A stretch of DNA of 64,000 nt. Source: a phage. Position 1 is the first letter of the stretch. The number at the start of each line of letters is the position of its first letter. Below, in pieces: positions 12,314 to 23,737 of the stretch. The notes under the pieces were generated by a model. The model searched no databases, was not told the DNA's origin, and saw nothing but the letters and a program-made list of their open reading frames with translations. The translations under genes and the position numbers were made by a program. Location of the stretch: sequence record PZ583742.1. One strand, written 5' to 3'.

Positions 12314-12495
12314 GTTTAAGCATTAGTCAGAAAAGTAGATTATTTGAGCTTATCCATGAGCTTTTGGATGAGCATACGGAAGCAAACGCCTTTTATGATG
12401 AATATGGTCCGATAGATGCCGAACATCAGGAAGAATTTGCTAATCGATTTGATGCGAAAGAAAACGAATTAATAGCTTATGTGAATACGCTTTAA
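12310..12495 (+). CDS. hypothetical protein
   Basis: ORF overlapping upstream stop. Confidence 0.4.
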   Translation: MSLSISQKSRLFELIHELLDEHTEANAFYDEYGPIDAEHQEEFANRFDAKENELIAYVNTL

Positions 12496-12504
12496 GAAGG
12501 TGAT

Positions 12505-13077
12505 ATGGCGAGTTTAATTTATCATTACGCAGCAATGAATGCAGGCAAAACAGCTTCATTGCTGACTGCAGCTTATTCCTATAAAGAGCGTGGAATGAGT
12601 GTGCTTTTGCTAAAACCTGTTATTGATAATCGGGACTCGGAATCTGAAATCAAATCACGTATTGGTATTAGCCAGGAAGCAAACCTGGTAACGGCCGACA
12701 TGAACCTGTTTGAATTCTATAAATGGGCCGAGTCTCAAAAGGATATCCATTGTGTCCTGGTCGATGAAGCTCAATTTTTGTTACCAGAGCAAATTGACCA
12801 GTTAGCTCAAGTGGTTGATAATTACAATATCCCCGTTATGTGTTACGGGTTAAGAACAGATTTTCGGGGTCAATTATTTCCCGGTTCAGCCAGACTTCTG
12901 GCTATTTCGGATAAACTGGTTGAATTAAAGGGCGTCTGTCATTGCGGCCGGAAAGCAACCATGACCGCGCGAGTAATCGACGGTGCTGCTGTAAAGGACG
13001 GCGAGCAAGTGTTAGTCGGTGGGAATGAATCGTACGTATCTTTATGCAGGAAACATTGGCTCGAATTAACAAGCTGA
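12505..13077 (+). CDS. tk: thymidine kinase
   Basis: P-loop NAGKTASLL, VDEAQF, C-terminal zinc motif CHCGRKA..C; typical TK1-family layout. Confidence 0.9.
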   Translation: MASLIYHYAAMNAGKTASLLTAAYSYKERGMSVLLLKPVIDNRDSESEIKSRIGISQEANLVTADMNLFEFYKWAESQKDIHCVLVDEAQFLLPEQIDQLAQVVDNYNIPVMCYGLRTDFRGQLFPGSARLLAISDKLVELKGVCHCGRKATMTARVIDGAAVKDGEQVLVGGNESYVSLCRKHWLELTS

Positions 13078-14600: not shown

Positions 14601-14782
14601 TGTTAACTACTGAACAGATTGAGAAAATTATCAAACTCGCTTGGCACATTGAAAATGCATCCAATGACCTGGCTGTTGAATATTGTGAAGGTTATTCATA
14701 TTCTGGAATAGAACAGTGTAAGCGTGATTTGAATAGTTCTAAAGAAGAATTAATTGCTTATCTGAATGGGTTGAAAGAATAA
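14600..14782 (+). CDS. hypothetical protein
   Basis: ATG overlaps upstream stop. Confidence 0.4.
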   Translation: MLTTEQIEKIIKLAWHIENASNDLAVEYCEGYSYSGIEQCKRDLNSSKEELIAYLNGLKE

Positions 14783-15039
14783 TGGCTGTTGGATTTGCAA
14801 AAGATGGTGCTGAACAGTTAGAGATGGAAGCGGTTGTACAGGCCGCTATCACCCATGCGAGAGCACAGGTTGCAGTTGAAAGGGAGTCTGCTGAATTCTG
14901 TTTTGACTGCGACGAAAAAATTCCTGAAGCGCGGAGACAAGCGATTAAAGGTGTGATATATTGTGTTGGTTGTCAATCAATGCATGATGAAATTTTTAAA
15001 CGTGAACCAAGAAATTGTTGGCACAGGAGCATGAGATGA
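14782..15039 (+). CDS. DksA/TraR-type C4 zinc-finger protein
   Basis: CFDCDEKIPEARRQAIKGVIYCVGCQ: CxxC-x17-CxxC with IPxxR, characteristic of TraR/DksA family. Confidence 0.5.
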   Translation: MAVGFAKDGAEQLEMEAVVQAAITHARAQVAVERESAEFCFDCDEKIPEARRQAIKGVIYCVGCQSMHDEIFKREPRNCWHRSMR

Positions 15040-15130
15040 TTTATTACTTAGAACCCTGGGCTTGGTCGACAATGATTATAGGTCCTATTTTAATCGGTTT
15101 ATTCTTTTCGTGGTTAGTGAGGAAAATGTA

Positions 15131-15346
15131 ATGTTATATGACCCAAGCGGCAATTCTGAAAATGGTGTGATTGTTCTGGAGCCTGAGCATCCAGTTGGTG
15201 ACGTATACCGCCCAGTTGAAGTATGCGAATGTAATTTTGTTAAAGGTAATACCGGTGGGATTTCCATTGAGCAAGATGATGATGTTATTTACCTGGATGC
15301 AAGCCAAGTAGAAGCACTTTATAGTATTTTAAAACATAACCGTTGA
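15131..15346 (+). CDS. hypothetical protein
   Basis: ATG 15131 after GAGGAAAA. Confidence 0.4.
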   Translation: MLYDPSGNSENGVIVLEPEHPVGDVYRPVEVCECNFVKGNTGGISIEQDDDVIYLDASQVEALYSILKHNR

Positions 15347-15356
15347 GGAACAGAAA

Positions 15357-15917
15357 ATGATTATTGAAACAACTGAATTGTTTGGCGAACTGACCGCTGA
15401 AGTAGTTAATAATGCAATTGAGCTTTGTCAAGAAGACGATAAAATCGTACTGACTATCCAAGATATTAAACCACTTTATGATTTAAAGGTTTTGGATAAA
15501 GACGAATATCTTAGTGGTAGTTTTAGTGGTGTATTTGATATTAACGATGATGTATGTGCTCGCATTTATAAGCACGATGGTGGGTTTAATATTGAAACAG
15601 ATGAAAAATGTCTGAGCATTAGCGATTCTGATAAATTCTTTGATTGTATTTTCAAACTGTTCCAGGAAGAATGTAAGCCAGAAGTTGAATGGAAAGTCCC
15701 AGGTCAAGATGCAGTGATTCGCTCTAGTGAAACCTTTGACGGTGACGAAGAGGAATTGAATTATAATACTGAACTGACTGTTGTTCAGCATGATGGTCGT
15801 GACCAACTATGTATTACCCAAGTACACGATGGTTTTAATGAAGTGGTATTTACTAAGGACGAGCTAAAAGTTTTAGTCTCTTATCTGAACTCTGTTATCC
15901 CAACTATGAACTCTTAA
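15357..15917 (+). CDS. acidic hypothetical protein
   Basis: 186 aa ORF with RBS GAGGAA. Confidence 0.45.
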   Translation: MIIETTELFGELTAEVVNNAIELCQEDDKIVLTIQDIKPLYDLKVLDKDEYLSGSFSGVFDINDDVCARIYKHDGGFNIETDEKCLSISDSDKFFDCIFKLFQEECKPEVEWKVPGQDAVIRSSETFDGDEEELNYNTELTVVQHDGRDQLCITQVHDGFNEVVFTKDELKVLVSYLNSVIPTMNS

Positions 15918-15927
15918 GGAAAATATT

Positions 15928-16380
15928 ATGATTATCAATGCAAACTCTTGGCACGTTAAATTACACGACCGTTTTTATGACCGTCATTCTCGACCACACT
16001 CTTTGTGTGCTTACTTCTGGAAAATGGTTTGGGCTTGTTTTGCTTGTGCTGTTGTTGCAGGTAGTATGCTTTTTGGATTAACTGTTGCAGGAGCTGGTGT
16101 ATTAGAGCATTTCTTTGTATTAAGTACTCCTGTTCTGTTGAGTCTAGGGTTTGTTTTAGGGTTGATTGCAATAGCTCTTATTATTGCGCTATCCATTGGT
16201 TTGGCATTAGGTGCGATGAATTTGCACGCATGGTATGATTTACGTAAAGAAGAAAAGGAATGGCAACGTATTCTAGCCAAACGTGAAGGAAAGGAAACTA
16301 AAGAAAACATCGTTATTCAATACATTAAAGCTCGTAAATCTAAGATGTGTCCTGTAATCCACTTCGAGGGCAAAAAATGA
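15928..16380 (+). CDS. membrane protein (2-3 TM helices, charged C-terminal tail)
   Basis: Hydrophobic segments ACFACAVVAGSMLFGLTVAGAGVL and LSLGFVLGLIAIALIIALSIGLALGA; stop overlaps start of downstream nucleotidyltransferase (ATGA). Confidence 0.5.
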   Translation: MIINANSWHVKLHDRFYDRHSRPHSLCAYFWKMVWACFACAVVAGSMLFGLTVAGAGVLEHFFVLSTPVLLSLGFVLGLIAIALIIALSIGLALGAMNLHAWYDLRKEEKEWQRILAKREGKETKENIVIQYIKARKSKMCPVIHFEGKK

Positions 16381-17387
16381 GAACAGTTATGAAAGGCTAC
16401 TTCGGTAGCCATCTTTATGGAACAAGCACTCCGGAATCTGATGTTGATTTTAAAGAAATCTTTGTTCCTCATCCGCGAGATATCCTGCTCGGAACCGCGA
16501 TGAACCATACAAACCTGAACACGAATAACACGGCTACCAAAAATACAAAAGACGATATTGACCATGAACTTTATAGCCTGAAATATTTCTTTAAACTGGC
16601 AGCCGAAGGCGAAACCGTTGCTCTGGACATGATTCACACCCCGGCTAACCTGGTTGTCAAATCCGATTTACCAGATGTATGGAAGTTTATTCAAGACAAC
16701 CGTTCGCGGTTCTATACAACTAACATGAAAGCCTATTTGGGGTACGTCCGTAAGCAAGCTTCCAAATATGGTGTTAAAGGTTCTCGATTGGCTGCACTGC
16801 GTGGTGTACTGGCAATTGTTAACCAGATTCCTGAACAGTGGGTCGATTATCAAGAAGGAATCCCTGATAGACTTCGTCGTACTAAGGTAGAAGATATCAA
16901 ACACAGACTCCCTGAAAACGAGTTCTGTGAATGGGTATTCCATAACCATGAGAAAACAGGTCCACAAACGTTCTATACTGTTCTCGGACGTAAGTACCAA
17001 ACTACTCTGTCATTAATCGAGCTCAAGCAATCTCTGAATAAACTCGACGCCGAATATGGTGAACGTGCTCGTAAAGCAGAAGCTAACGAAGGTATTGATT
17101 GGAAAGCACTGAGCCATGCTTATCGTGCAGGGTATCAATTGATGGAAATCTACCAAACAGGTGACTTGGTATTCCCATTGCGTGAAGCCTCTATCATTAA
17201 GCTGATTAAAGCTGGTGAATTACCATTTAAAGAAGTTCAAGAACTTCTTGAAGATACTGTCGATTTAGTTGAAGTTCTGGCCATCCAGGCTGCTAAGAAT
17301 GGTATGCCTGATAAGGTAGACATGAAGTTCTGGGACAAGTTTGTTGAAGAGGTATACCTTGACAACCACAATTCCTATTATCGTTAA
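16377..17387 (+). CDS. putative nucleotidyltransferase (Pol-beta superfamily fold)
   Basis: N-terminal GS-x10-DVD signature (GYFGSHLYGTSTPESDVDF) plus downstream DDIDHE; 336 aa. Confidence 0.5.
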   Translation: MRTVMKGYFGSHLYGTSTPESDVDFKEIFVPHPRDILLGTAMNHTNLNTNNTATKNTKDDIDHELYSLKYFFKLAAEGETVALDMIHTPANLVVKSDLPDVWKFIQDNRSRFYTTNMKAYLGYVRKQASKYGVKGSRLAALRGVLAIVNQIPEQWVDYQEGIPDRLRRTKVEDIKHRLPENEFCEWVFHNHEKTGPQTFYTVLGRKYQTTLSLIELKQSLNKLDAEYGERARKAEANEGIDWKALSHAYRAGYQLMEIYQTGDLVFPLREASIIKLIKAGELPFKEVQELLEDTVDLVEVLAIQAAKNGMPDKVDMKFWDKFVEEVYLDNHNSYYR

Positions 17388-17394
17388 TGAAGAA

Positions 17395-17583
17395 ATGAAG
17401 GTCTTCTTATCATACGGAAGACCTAATAAAGGTCGGCGCTGGTATCTCGAAGCAGTCTGTCGGGAAACTGGCAGACGAATCAACAATAAGTACATATGTA
17501 AACCAACTCCCAAACAAACTCGCAGGTTTGTTAACTGGGCTATCAATACTATAAGATTCCATAATTTTTGGAGTGCAATCTAA
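17395..17583 (+). CDS. small basic protein
   Basis: 62 aa ORF rich in R/K; followed by terminator. Confidence 0.35.
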   Translation: MKVFLSYGRPNKGRRWYLEAVCRETGRRINNKYICKPTPKQTRRFVNWAINTIRFHNFWSAI

Positions 17584-17603
17584 GGGCCGGATGGCCCTTT
17601 TTT
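17584..17603 (+). terminator. rho-independent terminator between convergent + genes and minus-strand collagen-like gene
   Basis: gggcc-ggat-ggccc followed by TTTTTT. Confidence 0.6.
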
Positions 17604-17605
17604 GT

Positions 17606-18352
17606 TTATGAAGTCACTGTTTGTTCGGCTACTAACAATGCGGAGGTTATTGTAAAGTTGCCGCCATTTGGCATAACAGTTATAGCTGTACCATTGGTTG
17701 CCATTGCCTCATCTTTATCAATGCTAAAGAACGTTGTAAAAGACAAAATATCTGTAGCATTTTCCGGACGATTCTGTATATAAGTGTTTCCGTTGGTTCC
17801 AACGAAATTTAATGTTATACTTCGAGCTTGCGAGGCTCCTGCAAAATTACCAATAAGGTTGAGTTTAAACATTAGGCTTCTGTCTTGGTTATATGGCCAC
17901 AACTTATCATCAGTGGTTCTAAAAAACGGAGATAGAGTCCCTGCAGTCGGTGGAATCCCCTTTAAAACACTAATTATGTTTGAAGTCGTACCATTAGTTA
18001 ATAGAACGTTTATACCACTCCAAAACACCTCGGATTTTTCCCTCTTTCCTGCTGTATCAGTTAAAAAATCATCAACAGTTCCTGTATTTCCCAAGTCAAG
18101 CCATATCTGATAAGAAGATTTTCCATCCCCACCCGGTTCTCCTTTTGGTCCGGGTACACCCGGTTCTCCTTTGGGACCAGGCGGACCCGGTATCTGAGTT
18201 TCCGAGCTGGACATAGTTTGGAAAAAACGCTCTTTGCTATCTGTAGGGGTATTCGGCAACACCATAGTAGAACCAAACAAATACCAATTATCAGCCAAGG
18301 CAGCCTGGACTTTTTCATTGAGTTCATCAACAGTTCTTCCGGATAAAATCAT
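17606..18352 (-). CDS. collagen-like repeat protein with tail-fibre-type motif and beta-rich C-terminal domain
   Basis: Minus-strand 248 aa ORF with RBS AAAGGAG 8 nt before ATG; seven G-X-Y triplets (GPPGPKGEPGVPGPKGEPGGDG) followed by KSSYQIWLDLGNTGTVDDFL, then N/T/S/G-rich C-terminal domain. Confidence 0.7.
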   Translation of the reverse strand: MILSGRTVDELNEKVQAALADNWYLFGSTMVLPNTPTDSKERFFQTMSSSETQIPGPPGPKGEPGVPGPKGEPGGDGKSSYQIWLDLGNTGTVDDFLTDTAGKREKSEVFWSGINVLLTNGTTSNIISVLKGIPPTAGTLSPFFRTTDDKLWPYNQDRSLMFKLNLIGNFAGASQARSITLNFVGTNGNTYIQNRPENATDILSFTTFFSIDKDEAMATNGTAITVMPNGGNFTITSALLVAEQTVTS

Positions 18353-18986: not shown

Positions 18987-19018
18987 TGTGTACATGGTAT
19001 GGGGATAGACGTATAATG
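18987..19018 (+). promoter_or_regulatory. early promoter-like element TGTACA-N17-TATAAT
   Basis: TGTACA 18989-18994, TATAAT 19012-19017. Confidence 0.5.
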
Positions 19019-19053: not shown

Positions 19054-19578
19054 ATGGAAGCCAAATCAATCTTTAATCTGATTAATTACAATAATGGTAA
19101 TTTTAAATCAGAAGCACAAAGCAAGTTCTTTAATGATGTTGCTTGTGCTGGTGAGATTACAGTATCAGGTGGTCAAACTTATAAAAACACCTGGAACTGG
19201 ATTGTGACTGTTGATTCAGTTGGTATTGTTGATGTGTATAAAAACACCAATAAAAACCGCTCCTTGTTCTGGTCAAGAGAGACTAATGCTGAGTATCAGG
19301 CGACAAGAGCAAAGAAAAATATGCCTACTGAATCTGATGTACAAAACATCAAATCAGATATCCAATATTATGATGGTCTGATTGCTGAACAACAAGTGGT
19401 GCTTGATAAGTTCAATGAAATCAAAGCATGTAAAGAGATTCCTGAATTCATGCGGGAATCAGTTAATGAACAATACAATCTCACTTCAGAGCGTATTGAA
19501 ACCTATACCAAACAAAGAGCAGAGCGCCAGGTACTCCTTCAGAAGTTTGAAGAGCGTTTAAAGACGGTTCTCGCATAA
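19054..19578 (+). CDS. hypothetical protein with C-terminal helical region
   Basis: ORF downstream of TGTACA-N17-TATAAT promoter; RBS TGGAGAA. Confidence 0.5.
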   Translation: MEAKSIFNLINYNNGNFKSEAQSKFFNDVACAGEITVSGGQTYKNTWNWIVTVDSVGIVDVYKNTNKNRSLFWSRETNAEYQATRAKKNMPTESDVQNIKSDIQYYDGLIAEQQVVLDKFNEIKACKEIPEFMRESVNEQYNLTSERIETYTKQRAERQVLLQKFEERLKTVLA

Positions 19579-19641
19579 ACGCTTTATACCAAGGATGGTA
19601 TAATGGTTCTGACCTTTGATTAATCTATTGAGGAAATTATT

Positions 19642-20490
19642 ATGTCACAAGCAATTAATGAAATTCGTTCTGAAGTTAAAAAAGTTGTTAAATTTAACAG
19701 TATTCCAAGCACTAAAGATGTGGTTTTAAATGTTTTATATATGATGTGGAATAAGTTCAATGTTTGTACTAATTCCGCTGAATTCACTAAAATCTTTGAA
19801 AAGACCACTGGTCTTCTTACATTAGAAGACCGAGTCATGAAATCTCTTCATCGTTCAGGTATGTTGTCTCGTGCTAATGCCAAAATTCTACTTAAAAATT
19901 ATAATAAAGGCTATGACCTTTATGGTCGTGCGATTAGCACCATGACGTTTGATGAAGTGGTTAAAGACCTTTGGAAAAACCAGCGCCGTTTATTGGCATT
20001 AGGCGCTCGTTTAGCAAGCGGTCAAGATAAACAAATGACCTTTAAAACCAATAATTCTTTAGATTATAAACTATTTAATGTTATTAAAGGTCAAAAAGAA
20101 GGTGAATACAGTATTTCTTCTTTTAGTGGATGTCAATATGATAATTGGAAATTCCATCTTCGTTTGGCATTGTCTGTACTGGAATGTCACGGCATTCTTA
20201 CCTTTTATGATGTTAAAACTGGAGGCGTCCAGCGTATTAAACTATGTCAAATTAAAGACCAAGTTGAAGTCGAGAGCCCCATTGAACAAGCTCCTAAAAT
20301 GGAACCTGTTCCAGTGCGAAGCAATGAAAAATATTCAGAGCAAATTGAGCTTTTCACTAAACAGATTGAAGAGCTTAACATCACCATCCAGCAGCAAGAT
20401 GATGAAATTTTCCGTCTGTCAGGACTGAATAGCGCAGCGAAAGCCGAACGTCAGAAACTGATGAACGTTATTGAATTGCTTAAGGATTAA
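19642..20490 (+). CDS. hypothetical protein (282 aa) with C-terminal coiled coil
   Basis: ORF with RBS GAGGAAA; C-terminal 50 aa heptad-like. Confidence 0.5.
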   Translation: MSQAINEIRSEVKKVVKFNSIPSTKDVVLNVLYMMWNKFNVCTNSAEFTKIFEKTTGLLTLEDRVMKSLHRSGMLSRANAKILLKNYNKGYDLYGRAISTMTFDEVVKDLWKNQRRLLALGARLASGQDKQMTFKTNNSLDYKLFNVIKGQKEGEYSISSFSGCQYDNWKFHLRLALSVLECHGILTFYDVKTGGVQRIKLCQIKDQVEVESPIEQAPKMEPVPVRSNEKYSEQIELFTKQIEELNITIQQQDDEIFRLSGLNSAAKAERQKLMNVIELLKD

Positions 20491-20574
20491 TTATGGAATG
20501 GCTTGCTGTTCTTGGTTATGCAATCGTTGCCACAGGTATTCTGTGGCTGATATTCTCAAATATTGTAGGTTAAT

Positions 20575-20790
20575 ATGGAAATTGTAGGTTTTATTCTCCT
20601 TTACTTTGTGCTAGGATTCATGACGACCATTATCATTCATAAATCGGGTGATTGGAATCCAATCGAAATTGAATCAAGCTATGATGCAGTATTCATTACA
20701 CTAGTATGGCCTCTGCTTTGGTTTGTTTTGGCAATTATGATGGTGTGTTGGCCTATTGCTAAATTCTATGAAAAATTATTTGGACTATGA
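20575..20790 (+). CDS. small membrane protein
   Basis: Two hydrophobic segments. Confidence 0.4.
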   Translation: MEIVGFILLYFVLGFMTTIIIHKSGDWNPIEIESSYDAVFITLVWPLLWFVLAIMMVCWPIAKFYEKLFGL

Positions 20791-20791
20791 T

Positions 20792-21691
20792 ATGAAAATT
20801 AAAACACGTAAAGAATACGCTAGTAGTTATGAACCACATGACGGTCGTGTGACTCGTCTTATCGCAATGAATTCTTTGGTTAACTTTGGCAAAATCAAAT
20901 CAGGTTCTGCTACCCAGGGGTATGGTCAACGTATTGTAAGAATTAACTCTCTGAATGATTACTGCCGTCGCCCAGCGTTTTTGTTTGGTGCCACGGTTCG
21001 TAAGAGTATCAAGGAAATTCTGGCCGGCGGATTTCGTATTCGCAAAGCTCCGGTTAACATCAAGAACTATAATTTTAACTCTGACAACTTGATTATCAAT
21101 ATTAAGAATGATGGTGTACAGATTAAGTTCAAACCAACTACCAAGGGCGATGTTGCTCTTTGTCATAACTTTAAAGAGGTTATGGGTATTGCGCTGTTTT
21201 ATATGCGCCATGCTGTTGAATCGTACACGTTTGATGAAGATACAAATTATATCCACCAAACGGAAAAATTCCTCAAAACTATAGCCATTGATATTAAATT
21301 GACTAAAGAATATCTTTTATCTTATGCTCCTTATCAAGAGAAAAATGAACCAGAAGATAAAAAGGAACCAGAAATGGAACGTATCCCTACCGCATCATAT
21401 GGCCCAGCATTTGCAGGTCAGTTTAAATCTTACGACCAGACTAAAATTTCACCACTGGAAGTTAAAAATATGTATCAATGGAAAATCCAGCCAAACAGCT
21501 CTCTTGAAATCTTTAACCCACCAATGAAGCCTATTGAGAGCTATCATGCTGATGCTATCCGGGAATCAGTTAACCGCTTAAATGGTCTGATTGAAGATGA
21601 GAAAAAGGGTATCCAGGATGTTCTGAATCGCATCAAGAATATGGAAAAACAACGCAATAAATTGCAAGCGGCAATCAAAGCATTAAAATAA
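20792..21691 (+). CDS. hypothetical protein (300 aa) with C-terminal coiled coil
   Basis: ATG 20792 overlapping upstream stop; ORF-track frame. Confidence 0.5.
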   Translation: MKIKTRKEYASSYEPHDGRVTRLIAMNSLVNFGKIKSGSATQGYGQRIVRINSLNDYCRRPAFLFGATVRKSIKEILAGGFRIRKAPVNIKNYNFNSDNLIINIKNDGVQIKFKPTTKGDVALCHNFKEVMGIALFYMRHAVESYTFDEDTNYIHQTEKFLKTIAIDIKLTKEYLLSYAPYQEKNEPEDKKEPEMERIPTASYGPAFAGQFKSYDQTKISPLEVKNMYQWKIQPNSSLEIFNPPMKPIESYHADAIRESVNRLNGLIEDEKKGIQDVLNRIKNMEKQRNKLQAAIKALK

Positions 21692-21749
21692 TGTTTACTT
21701 CCAGGGATGGAGGGAGTATAATGAATTCCTACTTTATGAGGAGAACACT

Positions 21750-22742
21750 ATGACACGTAACGAATATATCCGGGCCTTTAACACCACTATCGATGCAAAA
21801 GTAAAACCATTAACAGGTGAATCGGCTATCCTTTCGATTATCAATTCCTGGTTAAATCAGATTGATTCGACTATTGTTGCATCTGGTCGCTTTGAAAAAG
21901 ACATCGCGACTATTGCGAGTCGTGCAGGTAAAGATGATATCAAGAAAACTTTTAAAGGTTCCCGAGTCCTGGCATACCTGGTTAATAAAGACCTTCTTAA
22001 TAAGTTTGGCGTTGAATCCAGACATGGTAAAGGTACAATTGGATATCATTGGTTTGGTGATGTTGAAAAATACTACCTTGATAAACAAGGCTATACTGTT
22101 TCTGAATTCGCAAATTGCTGGGCTCGTGAATTCAGAGATAACAAAATGTCTATCATCAAATCAGCGACAAAATTGATGGGTAGCGATTATCGCACTATCT
22201 CCCATTTGGCTGAGCACATGATAAATGTTAAAGAGTCTGGTGAAAACCAGGTAATTATTACAGTTAAGTATGAATTCTTTACGCCGGTAGCTACTCCAGA
22301 AAATGTCAAAAAGTATCTTGATGTCGCGAGCACGCTTACTTCACAGATGCAGTGTGCCCTTAATTATATGCGTACTGTTGAAAAAATTAAAGTAGACCCT
22401 ATCACCAGTACTCATGGTTGGAAAGGTTGGAAAATTGTGGTGACATTGCGTGAAGTTAAATGCGCAAAACAACCAACTGATGCAGAAATTTATAAAAAGA
22501 AAAGTGAGGAAATTATGAATGCTCCGCATGAAGTTACCACCCTTGAAGACCTGATTGATAATCTGAATAATGAGCCAGTGAAACAAAAAGCGCCTGAAAT
22601 TGTTGCCCTGGAAACAGCGTATAATGAAGCTCTTGCTATTAATAAAAAGGCAACTGAAGACTATACCAAAGCCAAGCGACTTTGGGAAGAATCAACTAAT
22701 CGTCTGGATAAACTGGAACAGGCTCTGGAGCTGCTGAAATGA
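21750..22742 (+). CDS. hypothetical protein (330 aa) with C-terminal coiled coil
   Basis: ORF with RBS GAGGAGAA. Confidence 0.5.
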   Translation: MTRNEYIRAFNTTIDAKVKPLTGESAILSIINSWLNQIDSTIVASGRFEKDIATIASRAGKDDIKKTFKGSRVLAYLVNKDLLNKFGVESRHGKGTIGYHWFGDVEKYYLDKQGYTVSEFANCWAREFRDNKMSIIKSATKLMGSDYRTISHLAEHMINVKESGENQVIITVKYEFFTPVATPENVKKYLDVASTLTSQMQCALNYMRTVEKIKVDPITSTHGWKGWKIVVTLREVKCAKQPTDAEIYKKKSEEIMNAPHEVTTLEDLIDNLNNEPVKQKAPEIVALETAYNEALAINKKATEDYTKAKRLWEESTNRLDKLEQALELLK

Positions 22743-23077
22743 AACAACGTTTAGCTGAAGATATTGCAGAAACTGCATTTCCAGAATGGACCCCCGACGC
22801 GGGGCTTAATAAAGGTCTTTTAAAATTTATTGAAAACGCCGAAGGCGAAGACCTTGTGCAATTGGGGAAGATTCATGGGTTTGATGATTATAGTCATGTT
22901 CCTGATTGGGATACGGTAATGGCTATAGTTCGTCGCCGTGAACGTGCTTCTAAACGTGTTCCTAACTGTCCAGAATGTGGAACTGAACAGGTCCAGTTGG
23001 TCCATTGGCAGACTAGTAATCTTCGTTATAAATGCAGACATTGTAAACATAAATTTGAGCGAGAAGAAAATGATTAA
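22739..23077 (+). CDS. zinc-ribbon protein
   Basis: C-terminal CPECG..x17..CRHCKH four-Cys motif. Confidence 0.45.
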   Translation: MKQRLAEDIAETAFPEWTPDAGLNKGLLKFIENAEGEDLVQLGKIHGFDDYSHVPDWDTVMAIVRRRERASKRVPNCPECGTEQVQLVHWQTSNLRYKCRHCKHKFEREEND

Positions 23078-23249: not shown

Positions 23250-23481
23250 AGAATATGTTGAGACCGCCGAAAGAGTGGTCCGTGAATTAACTCTGGCCTA
23301 TTATAAAGAACACGGTAAATTTCCGGATAGTTATTCGGTATTGAAATCCGCTTTAACTCGTTCGTATAATAATATCCTTACTGAAGTGCATGATATCAGA
23401 AATGCACACCTTAAAGAAACCGGGACAGAGCTAGACCGCTCTGAAGTATTCAAACAAGTATTAGGAATTCAAGATGTTTAA
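23236..23481 (+). CDS. hypothetical protein
   Basis: ORF overlapping neighbours. Confidence 0.4.
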
Positions 23482-23737
23482 AGTATATGGTTACGATTCA
23501 AACATTCATCGTTGCGTTTTCTGTGACAATGCAAAACGTTTACTTGACGTTAAAAAACAACCTTACGAGTTCATCAATGTTATGCCGGAAAAAGGTGTAT
23601 TTGATGATGAGAAGATTGCTCAACTCCTGGCTGCGCTTGGTCGCGAATCTCAAATTGGTTTGACCATGCCACAGGTATTTGCCCCAGACGGAAGTCATAT
23701 TGGTGGCTTCGACCAACTGCGAGAATATTTTAAATGA
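23474..23737 (+). CDS. nrdC: glutaredoxin/thioredoxin (NrdC)
   Basis: [47 protein letters not shown] is near-identical to T4 NrdC; CxxC active site. Confidence 0.92.

Follow-up and report, generated by a model that had tools for sequence, protein, structure and literature searches.

The 64,000-nucleotide stretch of phage DNA considered here (sequence record PZ583742.1), which we refer to as the window, carries a run of four mid-sized genes on its plus strand, the early-gene strand, flanked by the NrdC.11 nucleotidyltransferase (16377-17387) and the NrdC glutaredoxin (23474-23737). We number them gene 1 (19054..19578), gene 2 (19642..20490), gene 3 (20792..21691) and gene 4 (21750..22742). The 4.7 kb around the run is 99.1% identical to Escherichia phage vB_EcoM_RZ (Straboviridae, Tevenvirinae, Gaprivervirus) and 90-96% identical to many other T4-like phages. 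An earlier note on this DNA had placed the four open reading frames (ORFs) correctly. It credited each with a distinct N-terminal domain and a heptad-like C-terminus of 40-50 residues, saw no resemblance to T4 proteins, and proposed a common docking or oligomerisation module joined to variable heads. As shown below, genes 2 to 4 are instead divergent copies of one another along their full length, and gene 1 stands apart from them.

All four proteins have counterparts in T4, and the impression that they resemble none of its proteins was mistaken. Gene 1 (174 residues) is an orthologue of NrdC.8, with 67% identity over 175 blastp columns (E 2e-88) and a match to phrog_2274 (E 4e-98). Gene 2 (282 residues) is of the NrdC.6 type, being 51% identical to T4 NrdC.6 over 237 columns (E 6e-72) and matching phrog_2257; near-identical database proteins of 280-283 residues (e.g. 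P0094, NrdC.6 of phage VR7) carry a precomputed PF26899 assignment. Gene 3 belongs to the NrdC.5 type, DUF7235. It matches the Pfam entry PF23882 over residues 1-299 with 412.7 bits against a gathering threshold of 30 (E 1.4e-123), and is 27% identical to T4 NrdC.5 (E 4e-24), which lies at the equivalent position. Gene 4 (330 residues) is of the NrdC.4 type, with 50% identity to T4 NrdC.4 over 334 columns (E 2e-111) and a match to phrog_1435, and PF26897 is precomputed for P0054, a protein 100% identical to it. Gene 4 also finds T4 NrdC.3 by BLAST (E 9e-5 over residues 2-211). The window itself has neither NrdC.3 nor NrdC.10.

The start of gene 3 is ambiguous. Translation from ATG 20792 gives 299 residues and from ATG 20768, the start used in the vB_EcoM_RZ annotation, 307; the match to DUF7235 sets in at position 9 of the profile. 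Read from ATG 20792 the protein begins with MKIKTRKEY, the family N-terminal M(K)TR.EY motif of NrdC.3,.4 and.5. Many GenBank and UniRef records label homologues of NrdC.4,.5,.6 and.8 'thioredoxin'. None of the four proteins has a thioredoxin, glutaredoxin or ribonucleotide reductase match in Pfam or NCBIfam, and the label simply follows from the locus name nrdC.x. Such naming artefacts ('thioredoxin', 'reductase') have already leaked into the reading of transcriptome data: a 2026 paper on DRT1 took downregulated T4 nrdC.8 to be a nucleotide reductase (PMC13275509).

The C-terminal heptads were assessed on the last 49 residues of each protein, taking the best single register and comparing it with 2000 shuffles. 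Hydrophobic residues occupy 11 of 14 a/d positions in gene 2 (p=0.0055) and 12 of 14 in both gene 3 (p=0.0005) and gene 4 (p=0.001), and the tails of T4 NrdC.3,.4,.5 and.6 give a similar signal. In gene 1 the count is 8 of 14 (p=0.27; p=0.08 over 42 residues), and the signal is marginal overall (p 0.04-0.27). In a sliding-window version of the test, gene 1 passes the 99th percentile at residues 145-173 and nowhere else, and its C-terminal half appears to consist of two helical segments that break at the conserved Pro130. The heptad-like ending attributed to all four proteins thus holds for three of them. The test was also non-significant for the homologues of NrdC.11,.9,.2 and.1 and for T4 NrdC.10. 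Among the window's 73 non-overlapping ORFs of at least 100 residues, three have a C-terminus of this kind; these are genes 2, 3 and 4, which lie side by side, and three such adjacent endings are well beyond chance.

Structure prediction agrees with the heptads in genes 3 and 4, each of which ends in a single helix of 48-51 residues. The AlphaFold2 model of gene 4, built on a 67-sequence alignment, has a predicted local distance difference test score (pLDDT) of 83.4, with values of about 90 for most of residues 1-240. It comprises a confident alpha/beta head (1-256), a low-confidence linker (257-281) and one uninterrupted terminal helix (282-329, nt 22593-22739; pLDDT 62-83). The gene 3 model, numbered from ATG 20768, likewise shows a head (~10-185), a 67-residue disordered linker (188-254) and one terminal helix (256-306, nt 21533-21685; pLDDT 78-92), which forms the predicted coiled-coil tail. 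In gene 2 we place the head at ~1-208 and a coiled-coil tail at ~233-282 (nt 20338-20487), with a short Pro-rich linker between them.

To relate these proteins to one another, we took 26 T4-like loci, anchored on NrdC.11, and mapped their genes. Profiles F3, F4, F5 and F6 represent the NrdC.3,.4,.5 and.6 types. In the divergent loci no NrdC.3-.6 was detectable by BLAST; these phages have a single gene of 309-366 residues immediately 5′ of NrdC.2, which we call FX, and whose proteins end in a like tail (...QRAKLLHAMQELRK, ...QRGKLLRAIQALK, ...YDKLFAALSALK). Full-length hhalign comparisons gave 97.6% for F3-F4, 96.8% for F4-FX (276 columns), 97.5% for F5-FX (258 columns), 96.1% for F6-FX (240 columns), 95.4% for F3-FX and 86.6% for F4-F5, with at most 1% for the negative controls NrdC.10 and NrdC.11. 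Of the window's 330 ORFs, a hidden Markov model (HMM) built from FX alone matched exactly three, with E values of 4e-10 for gene 3, 1e-7 for gene 4 and 2e-5 for gene 2 (1.8e-5 before rounding).

The relationship extends to the heads, which the earlier note had taken to be distinct. With the last 55 residues removed, hhalign still gave 97.7% for F3-F4, 96.0% for F4-FX, 93.6% for F6-FX, 74.5% for F4-F5 and 50.2% for F5-FX, and an HMM of FX heads (FX_head) matched both gene 4 (3e-8) and gene 2 (1.5e-5). The head of gene 3 is the most weakly linked by sequence; in the AlphaFold2 models the order of its secondary-structure elements is that of gene 4, and the two models share the disordered linker and the long terminal helix, the gene 3 model having no counterpart of gene 4's N-terminal helical bundle. 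In Foldseek searches the gene 4 model matches JS10 NrdC.6 (E 9.3e-6, 12% identity), the gene 3 model matches an NrdC.6-type protein of phage Sf25 (E 8e-4), and both retrieve the same uncharacterised FX-type proteins of Straboviridae that infect Enterobacter, Erwinia and Pectobacterium. Precomputed Pfam labels also cross the groups: some FX proteins are assigned to PF26897 or PF23882, and the NrdC.3 type shares PF26897 with NrdC.4.

The tails were compared separately. Because coiled coils can match one another by composition alone, column-reversed tails served as controls. In alignments that run in register to the C-terminus, hhalign gave 96.9% for F5-FX, 90.2% for F3-FX, 56.8% for F3-F5 and 53.8% for F6-FX; real tail scores of 49.1, 31.9, 24.2 and 23.6 compare with a maximum of 16.8 for the reversed controls. 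For the families present in the window, tail homology emerges only through the intermediate FX family, and for F4 at a marginal level. We conclude that NrdC.6, NrdC.5, NrdC.4 and T4 NrdC.3 are full-length divergent paralogues that form one family with FX. The heads are divergent copies of one fold, which argues for tandem gene duplication and not for domain shuffling.

These results bear directly on the idea of unrelated effector heads, shuffled onto four proteins, gene 1 included, that share a C-terminal module for one partner. Helical C-terminal regions do occur in all four, tails are the best conserved part within orthologue groups, and tail homology is detectable via FX for three of the groups. 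The homology of the heads of genes 2 to 4 largely refutes the idea already, and gene 1, with its marginal heptads, has no similarity to the others in head or tail. By hhalign, gene 1 scores at most 0.4% against F3, F4, F5, F6 and FX at full length and at most 0.6% with the head alone, every comparison of NrdC.8 tails falls at the level of the reversed controls, and searches of Pfam, NCBIfam and PDB returned no relative. Membership of NrdC.8 as a distant relative is ruled out by these noise-level profile comparisons, and a UvsY-like identity was rejected (Pfam E 0.16). As far as profile comparison can tell, gene 1 is unrelated to genes 2 to 4, is better conserved than they are, and merely adjoins the array. 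A shuffled common module is therefore, in our judgement, highly improbable.

The tail sequences themselves speak to how such a module would work. Between paralogues, identity falls from 26% in the core to 19% at e/g and 17% at outer positions, and the only tail columns conserved throughout the superfamily are core a/d positions and a terminal A...LK. A docking surface for one partner, the other half of the shared-module proposal, is poorly served by exposed positions that are only ~17% identical across paralogues; self-association fits the tail sequences better. In coiled coils, differences at e/g and outer positions tend to favour specific self-pairing. The a positions of the family tails are mostly I, L or V, Leu fills 49% of the d positions, and tails of the FX, NrdC.5 and NrdC.6 types bury an Arg at one equivalent a position, in their last heptad but one. 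Such a pattern, with a buried polar residue, is typical of parallel two-stranded zippers, and judging by a/d composition the proteins probably dimerise through the tail.

We also considered that the C-terminal helices are not coiled coils at all, and that they are amphipathic helices which pack on the head or bind membrane or nucleic acid, the heptad pattern being incidental. Monomer models cannot show pairing, the tail of gene 4 is predicted with moderate confidence, and profile searches of PDB sequences with the family and NrdC.8 returned only designed helical repeats, SMC, FosW, prefoldin and viral fusion heptad-repeat noise; the tail's own matches (SMC, FosW, prefoldin) are generic. On the other side, seven consecutive heptads run in one register in the three paralogues and in T4 NrdC.3-.6, unbroken in all family tails, with d rich in Leu, beta-branched residues at a and hardly any Pro or Gly. 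Both AlphaFold2 models show the helix standing clear of the head beyond the disordered linker, and among the window's 73 ORFs the feature is confined to genes 2 to 4. An incidental heptad pattern strikes us as very unlikely.

The family is narrowly distributed and varies sharply within its range. When the superfamily profile was run with HMMER exhaustively against 1.84 billion cluster representatives, it returned 43 clusters only. Nearly all are of 280-364 residues and align over their whole length, and generic coiled-coil proteins were not drawn in. The divergent loci have one copy, loci of the window's type three and Tequatrovirus four, and the gene order F6-F5-F4-(F3)-NrdC.2 is invariant. 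Between paralogues, DNA-level repeats amount to short matches only, and the single in-register match encodes the N-terminal TR.EY motif; the duplications are therefore old, with no recent duplication or obvious recombination substrate.

Loci L004 and L028 illustrate how quickly these genes diverge. Their flanking NrdC.11 and NrdC are 95-99% identical to those of the window, and the genes between are 49-50% (gene 3), 47-48% (gene 4), 71% (gene 2) and 77-78% (gene 1) identical. Divergence of the family genes is concentrated in head and linker: against L004, identity is 42% in the head and 80% in the tail for gene 4, and 48% and 71% respectively for gene 3, while gene 2 against T4 gives 37% and 70%. 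A conserved C-terminal module with variable heads is thus an apt description of genes 2 to 4 relative to their orthologues (heads 37-48%, tails 70-80%), and fails for gene 1. Lineage-dependent copy number, hypervariable genes inside conserved flanks and fast-evolving heads make up a pattern that reads as the signature of an arms race.

Several loci carry damaged copies. In L011 (15507-16539) NrdC.4 is split into ORFs of 193 and 158 residues, in L019 (15947-16900) the single FX gene is split, and in L014 the homologues of NrdC.8 (12411-12836) and NrdC.4 (14746-15717) are apparently shortened internally near the C-terminus. Such copies are consistent with dispensable accessory genes. In Acinetobacter phage Acj61 (L030, 35452-37472), the adjacent Acj61p120 (330 residues) and Acj61p121 (304 residues) lie between nrdC and nrdC.10. 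Comparison of profiles with these single sequences was non-significant (9.3% and 0.9%); Foldseek relates them to the gene 4 model at E 1.4e-8 and 4.4e-8, and a head-plus-coiled-coil architecture is visible in both. This structural likeness suggests that tandem copies of the family occur in Twarogvirinae too.

A biological activity has been reported for one member of the family. Dsr1 is a SIR2-domain defence protein: deletion of dsr1 in ECOR17 restored infection, plasmid-borne dsr1 protected MG1655, and a deletion mutant again forms plaques on MG1655 with ECOR17 dsr1 once T4 nrdC.5 is expressed (Srikant et al. 2022, eLife, PMC9391042). The same study describes nrdC.5 as an uncharacterised early gene, without a reported mechanism (PMC9391042). 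In the open-access literature we found no paper on the paralogy of NrdC.3-.6 or on the mechanism of NrdC.5.

With this activity in mind, we favour, at a probability of roughly 60%, the reading that genes 2 to 4 are ancient tandem duplicates forming an expanded array of early proteins, non-essential and acting in counter-defence or host range, which self-associate through the tail and bind their targets through the head. The paralogy is observed; the function would follow by analogy with T4 NrdC.5, from which it is extrapolated. Each protein would consist of an alpha/beta globular head, a disordered, proline-containing linker of variable length and an amphipathic terminal helix of ~49 residues. 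The helix would zip two chains into a parallel coiled coil, leaving two heads on flexible tethers. The heads may then bind host proteins, notably anti-phage defence proteins, and neutralise them, each paralogue or allele being tuned to a different target or target variant. The columns conserved throughout the superfamily are hydrophobic or structural, and the head has no conserved acidic, His, Cys or Ser residue; with no conserved residues of a catalytic type, a binding protein fits better than an enzyme. We infer target binding by the heads, and counter-defence in members other than T4 NrdC.5.

Scans of functional libraries add little, returning only DUFs from Pfam, families of unknown function from PHROGs and nothing significant from NCBIfam. 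A single weak Cmr5 match in PADLOC (E 0.003) was judged to be noise, and weak TRAPP/Bet3 and H-NOX-like resemblances in PDB (TM score at most 0.24) were not taken as evidence.

Several observations weigh against the counter-defence reading. Counter-defence has been shown for one member, in T4 only, and gene 3 of the window is 27% identical to that protein. The head fold has no Foldseek match in PDB at E <=0.001, and PADLOC and NCBIfam likewise supplied no independent functional clue. Within each orthologue group, outer tail positions are nearly as conserved as the core, which a plain zipper does not explain and which raises the possibility of paralogue-specific partners. The AlphaFold2 models are of monomers, which would show a solitary long helix regardless of how the chains associate. 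The NrdC.4-type tail is linked to FX only marginally (13.1%, score 18.6 against the control maximum of 16.8), and pairwise comparison of the window genes' tail profiles, by which the earlier note expected the common module to be recognised, was non-significant when made directly (F4-F5 5%, F4-F6 0.3%, F5-F6 1.0%). The reading also leaves the conserved neighbours of the family, small membrane ORFs and a zinc-ribbon protein, unexplained.

These neighbours are as follows. A 71-residue small membrane-protein ORF lies between genes 2 and 3 (20575..20790, plus strand; phrog_7899 E 2e-31) and is conserved in 10 loci. It is preceded by a 26-codon hydrophobic ORF, MEWLAVLGYAIVATGILWLIFSNIVG (20494..20574, plus strand), which is a coding sequence in the vB_EcoM_RZ annotation (L001 5094-5174). 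Downstream of gene 4 on the plus strand is the orthologue of NrdC.2, a zinc-ribbon protein (22739..23077) assigned from 64% identity to T4 NrdC.2, weak zinc-ribbon matches in Pfam, and synteny. NrdC.2 is the downstream neighbour of the family in nearly all of the 26 related loci, where it served as a positional anchor, and the last family gene directly abuts it wherever it is recognisable. Genes 2 to 4 thus occupy the family's position, between NrdC.10/.11 and NrdC.2 on the early strand. In divergent phages a small hydrophobic ORF is also found 5′ of the single family gene (L024 15069-15508, L025 16996-17202, L027 16102-16311), and a trio of small membrane ORF, family gene and NrdC.2 is conserved in the window and in divergent single-copy phages alike.

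This arrangement would suit a different account, in which the paralogues act jointly: similar tails would let them form hetero-oligomers (e.g. NrdC.5 with NrdC.6) within one multi-headed complex, perhaps linked to the small membrane proteins, that serves host takeover and is not specific to defence. The order F6-(TM)-F5-F4-(F3)-NrdC.2, with TM standing for the small membrane ORF, is invariant and inherited jointly in every multi-copy locus; the Arg at the same a position is conserved in F5, F6 and FX tails; and small membrane ORFs adjoin the family even where it has a single copy. Set against this, T4 NrdC.5 supplied alone from a plasmid rescued a large-deletion phage (PMC9391042), which implies that it does not need all of its neighbours in order to act. 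A single copy suffices in many phages, individual copies are lost by frameshift (NrdC.4 in L011), and the tails of the paralogues differ at e/g and outer positions. We regard joint action in one complex as unlikely.

In its most ambitious form, the reading of genes 2 to 4 as counter-defence proteins would make NrdC.3-.6 and FX an expandable platform of the Straboviridae, in which a conserved dimerising zipper presents two fast-evolving heads, each paralogue neutralises its own host immune sensor (Dsr1 in the case of NrdC.5, other systems for NrdC.3,.4 and.6), and lineage-specific tandem duplication and allele replacement track host defences. We offer this as speculation, and think it rather doubtful as a whole. 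If it were true, similar zippers might permit heterodimers and so a wider range of targets.

Promoter-like sites occur close to three of the genes, all on the plus strand. Consensus scans (10/12 in each case) found TGTACA-17-TATAAT 5′ of gene 1 (18989..19017) and (G)TTTACT-17-TATAAT 5′ of gene 4 (21694..21722), both of the T4 early type in appearance. A candidate MotA-type middle promoter 5′ of gene 2 (19580..19604) was recognised by eye as CGCTTTA, 12 nt and TATAAT, which we take to resemble the T4 MotA-box consensus. Early or middle transcription would thus start at putative sites near the genes.

Upstream of the run, the mechanically called ORF of the NrdC.11 homologue begins at GTG 16347; the start congruent with T4 is ATG 16377, which gives 336 residues with 81% identity to T4 NrdC.11. 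The protein matches the RlaP/nucleotidyltransferase family (PF10127 E 6e-13; phrog_388). Where T4 has NrdC.10, the window has an ORF of 248 residues on the minus strand (17606-18352), opposite to all of its neighbours, with a strong stem-loop (17582-17599) just beyond its 3′ end. Its product has a collagen-like G-X-Y run (GPPGPKGEPGVPGPKGEPGGDG) and, at the C-terminus, a tail-needle-knob domain of the Sf6 type (PF16532 E 2.4e-31; phrog_1030 E 3e-66); the vB_EcoM_RZ annotation goes no further than 'hypothetical protein'. One would not expect a T4-like myovirus to carry a podovirus-type knob in its early region.

No lytic phage has been studied better than T4, and still nearly half of its genes have no assigned function. 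What the genes of this run are is an ordinary matter, given that they are known as T4 ORFs and Pfam DUFs and that a 99% identical phage has been deposited. The modestly new element is the unification of four consecutive T4 ORFs, NrdC.3,.4,.5 and.6, with FX in one head-linker-zipper family that includes the only known anti-Dsr1 factor. It turns three orphan T4 genes into candidate counter-defence or host-range factors, and it accounts for the sharp differences in this block between therapeutic T4-like phages that are otherwise near-identical.

Among known systems the closest is T4 NrdC.5 (DUF7235) itself, of which gene 3 is the positional orthologue, with the same head, linker and coiled-coil layout and the same 'QR.KL..A...L' ending. 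Gene 3 differs in sequence, being 27% identical overall and 21% in the head, and anti-Dsr1 activity is known only for the T4 protein. The nearest functional analogue of the role proposed for NrdC.5 is DSAD1 of phage SPbeta, a non-enzymatic phage protein that inhibits DSR2, a SIR2-domain defence protein that depletes NAD+; according to two reports DSAD1 acts directly on DSR2 (PMC11087589, PMC10973363). Neither a coiled-coil tail nor tandem paralogues are described for DSAD1, its target is DSR2 and not Dsr1, and the 50 best Foldseek matches of the gene 4 model in PDB (best E 9e-3) include no DSAD1 or DSR2-complex chain. For the tail, the comparison is with parallel leucine zippers of the GCN4/bZIP type, which the family resembles in that its heptads run without a break, Leu predominates at d, a is filled by beta-branched residues and a single a position holds a buried polar residue, Arg; a weak profile match of the family tail to the FosW zipper peptide fits this likeness. 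Unlike bZIP proteins, the family has no basic DNA-binding region, and its predicted zipper stands at the extreme C-terminus behind a disordered linker. Finally, genes 4 and 2 are orthologues (50% and 51% identity) of members of the T4 NrdC.4/NrdC.3 (PF26897) and NrdC.6 (PF26899) families, with the same order and architecture. Current labels keep these as separate families of unknown function, whereas here they join DUF7235 and FX in one superfamily.

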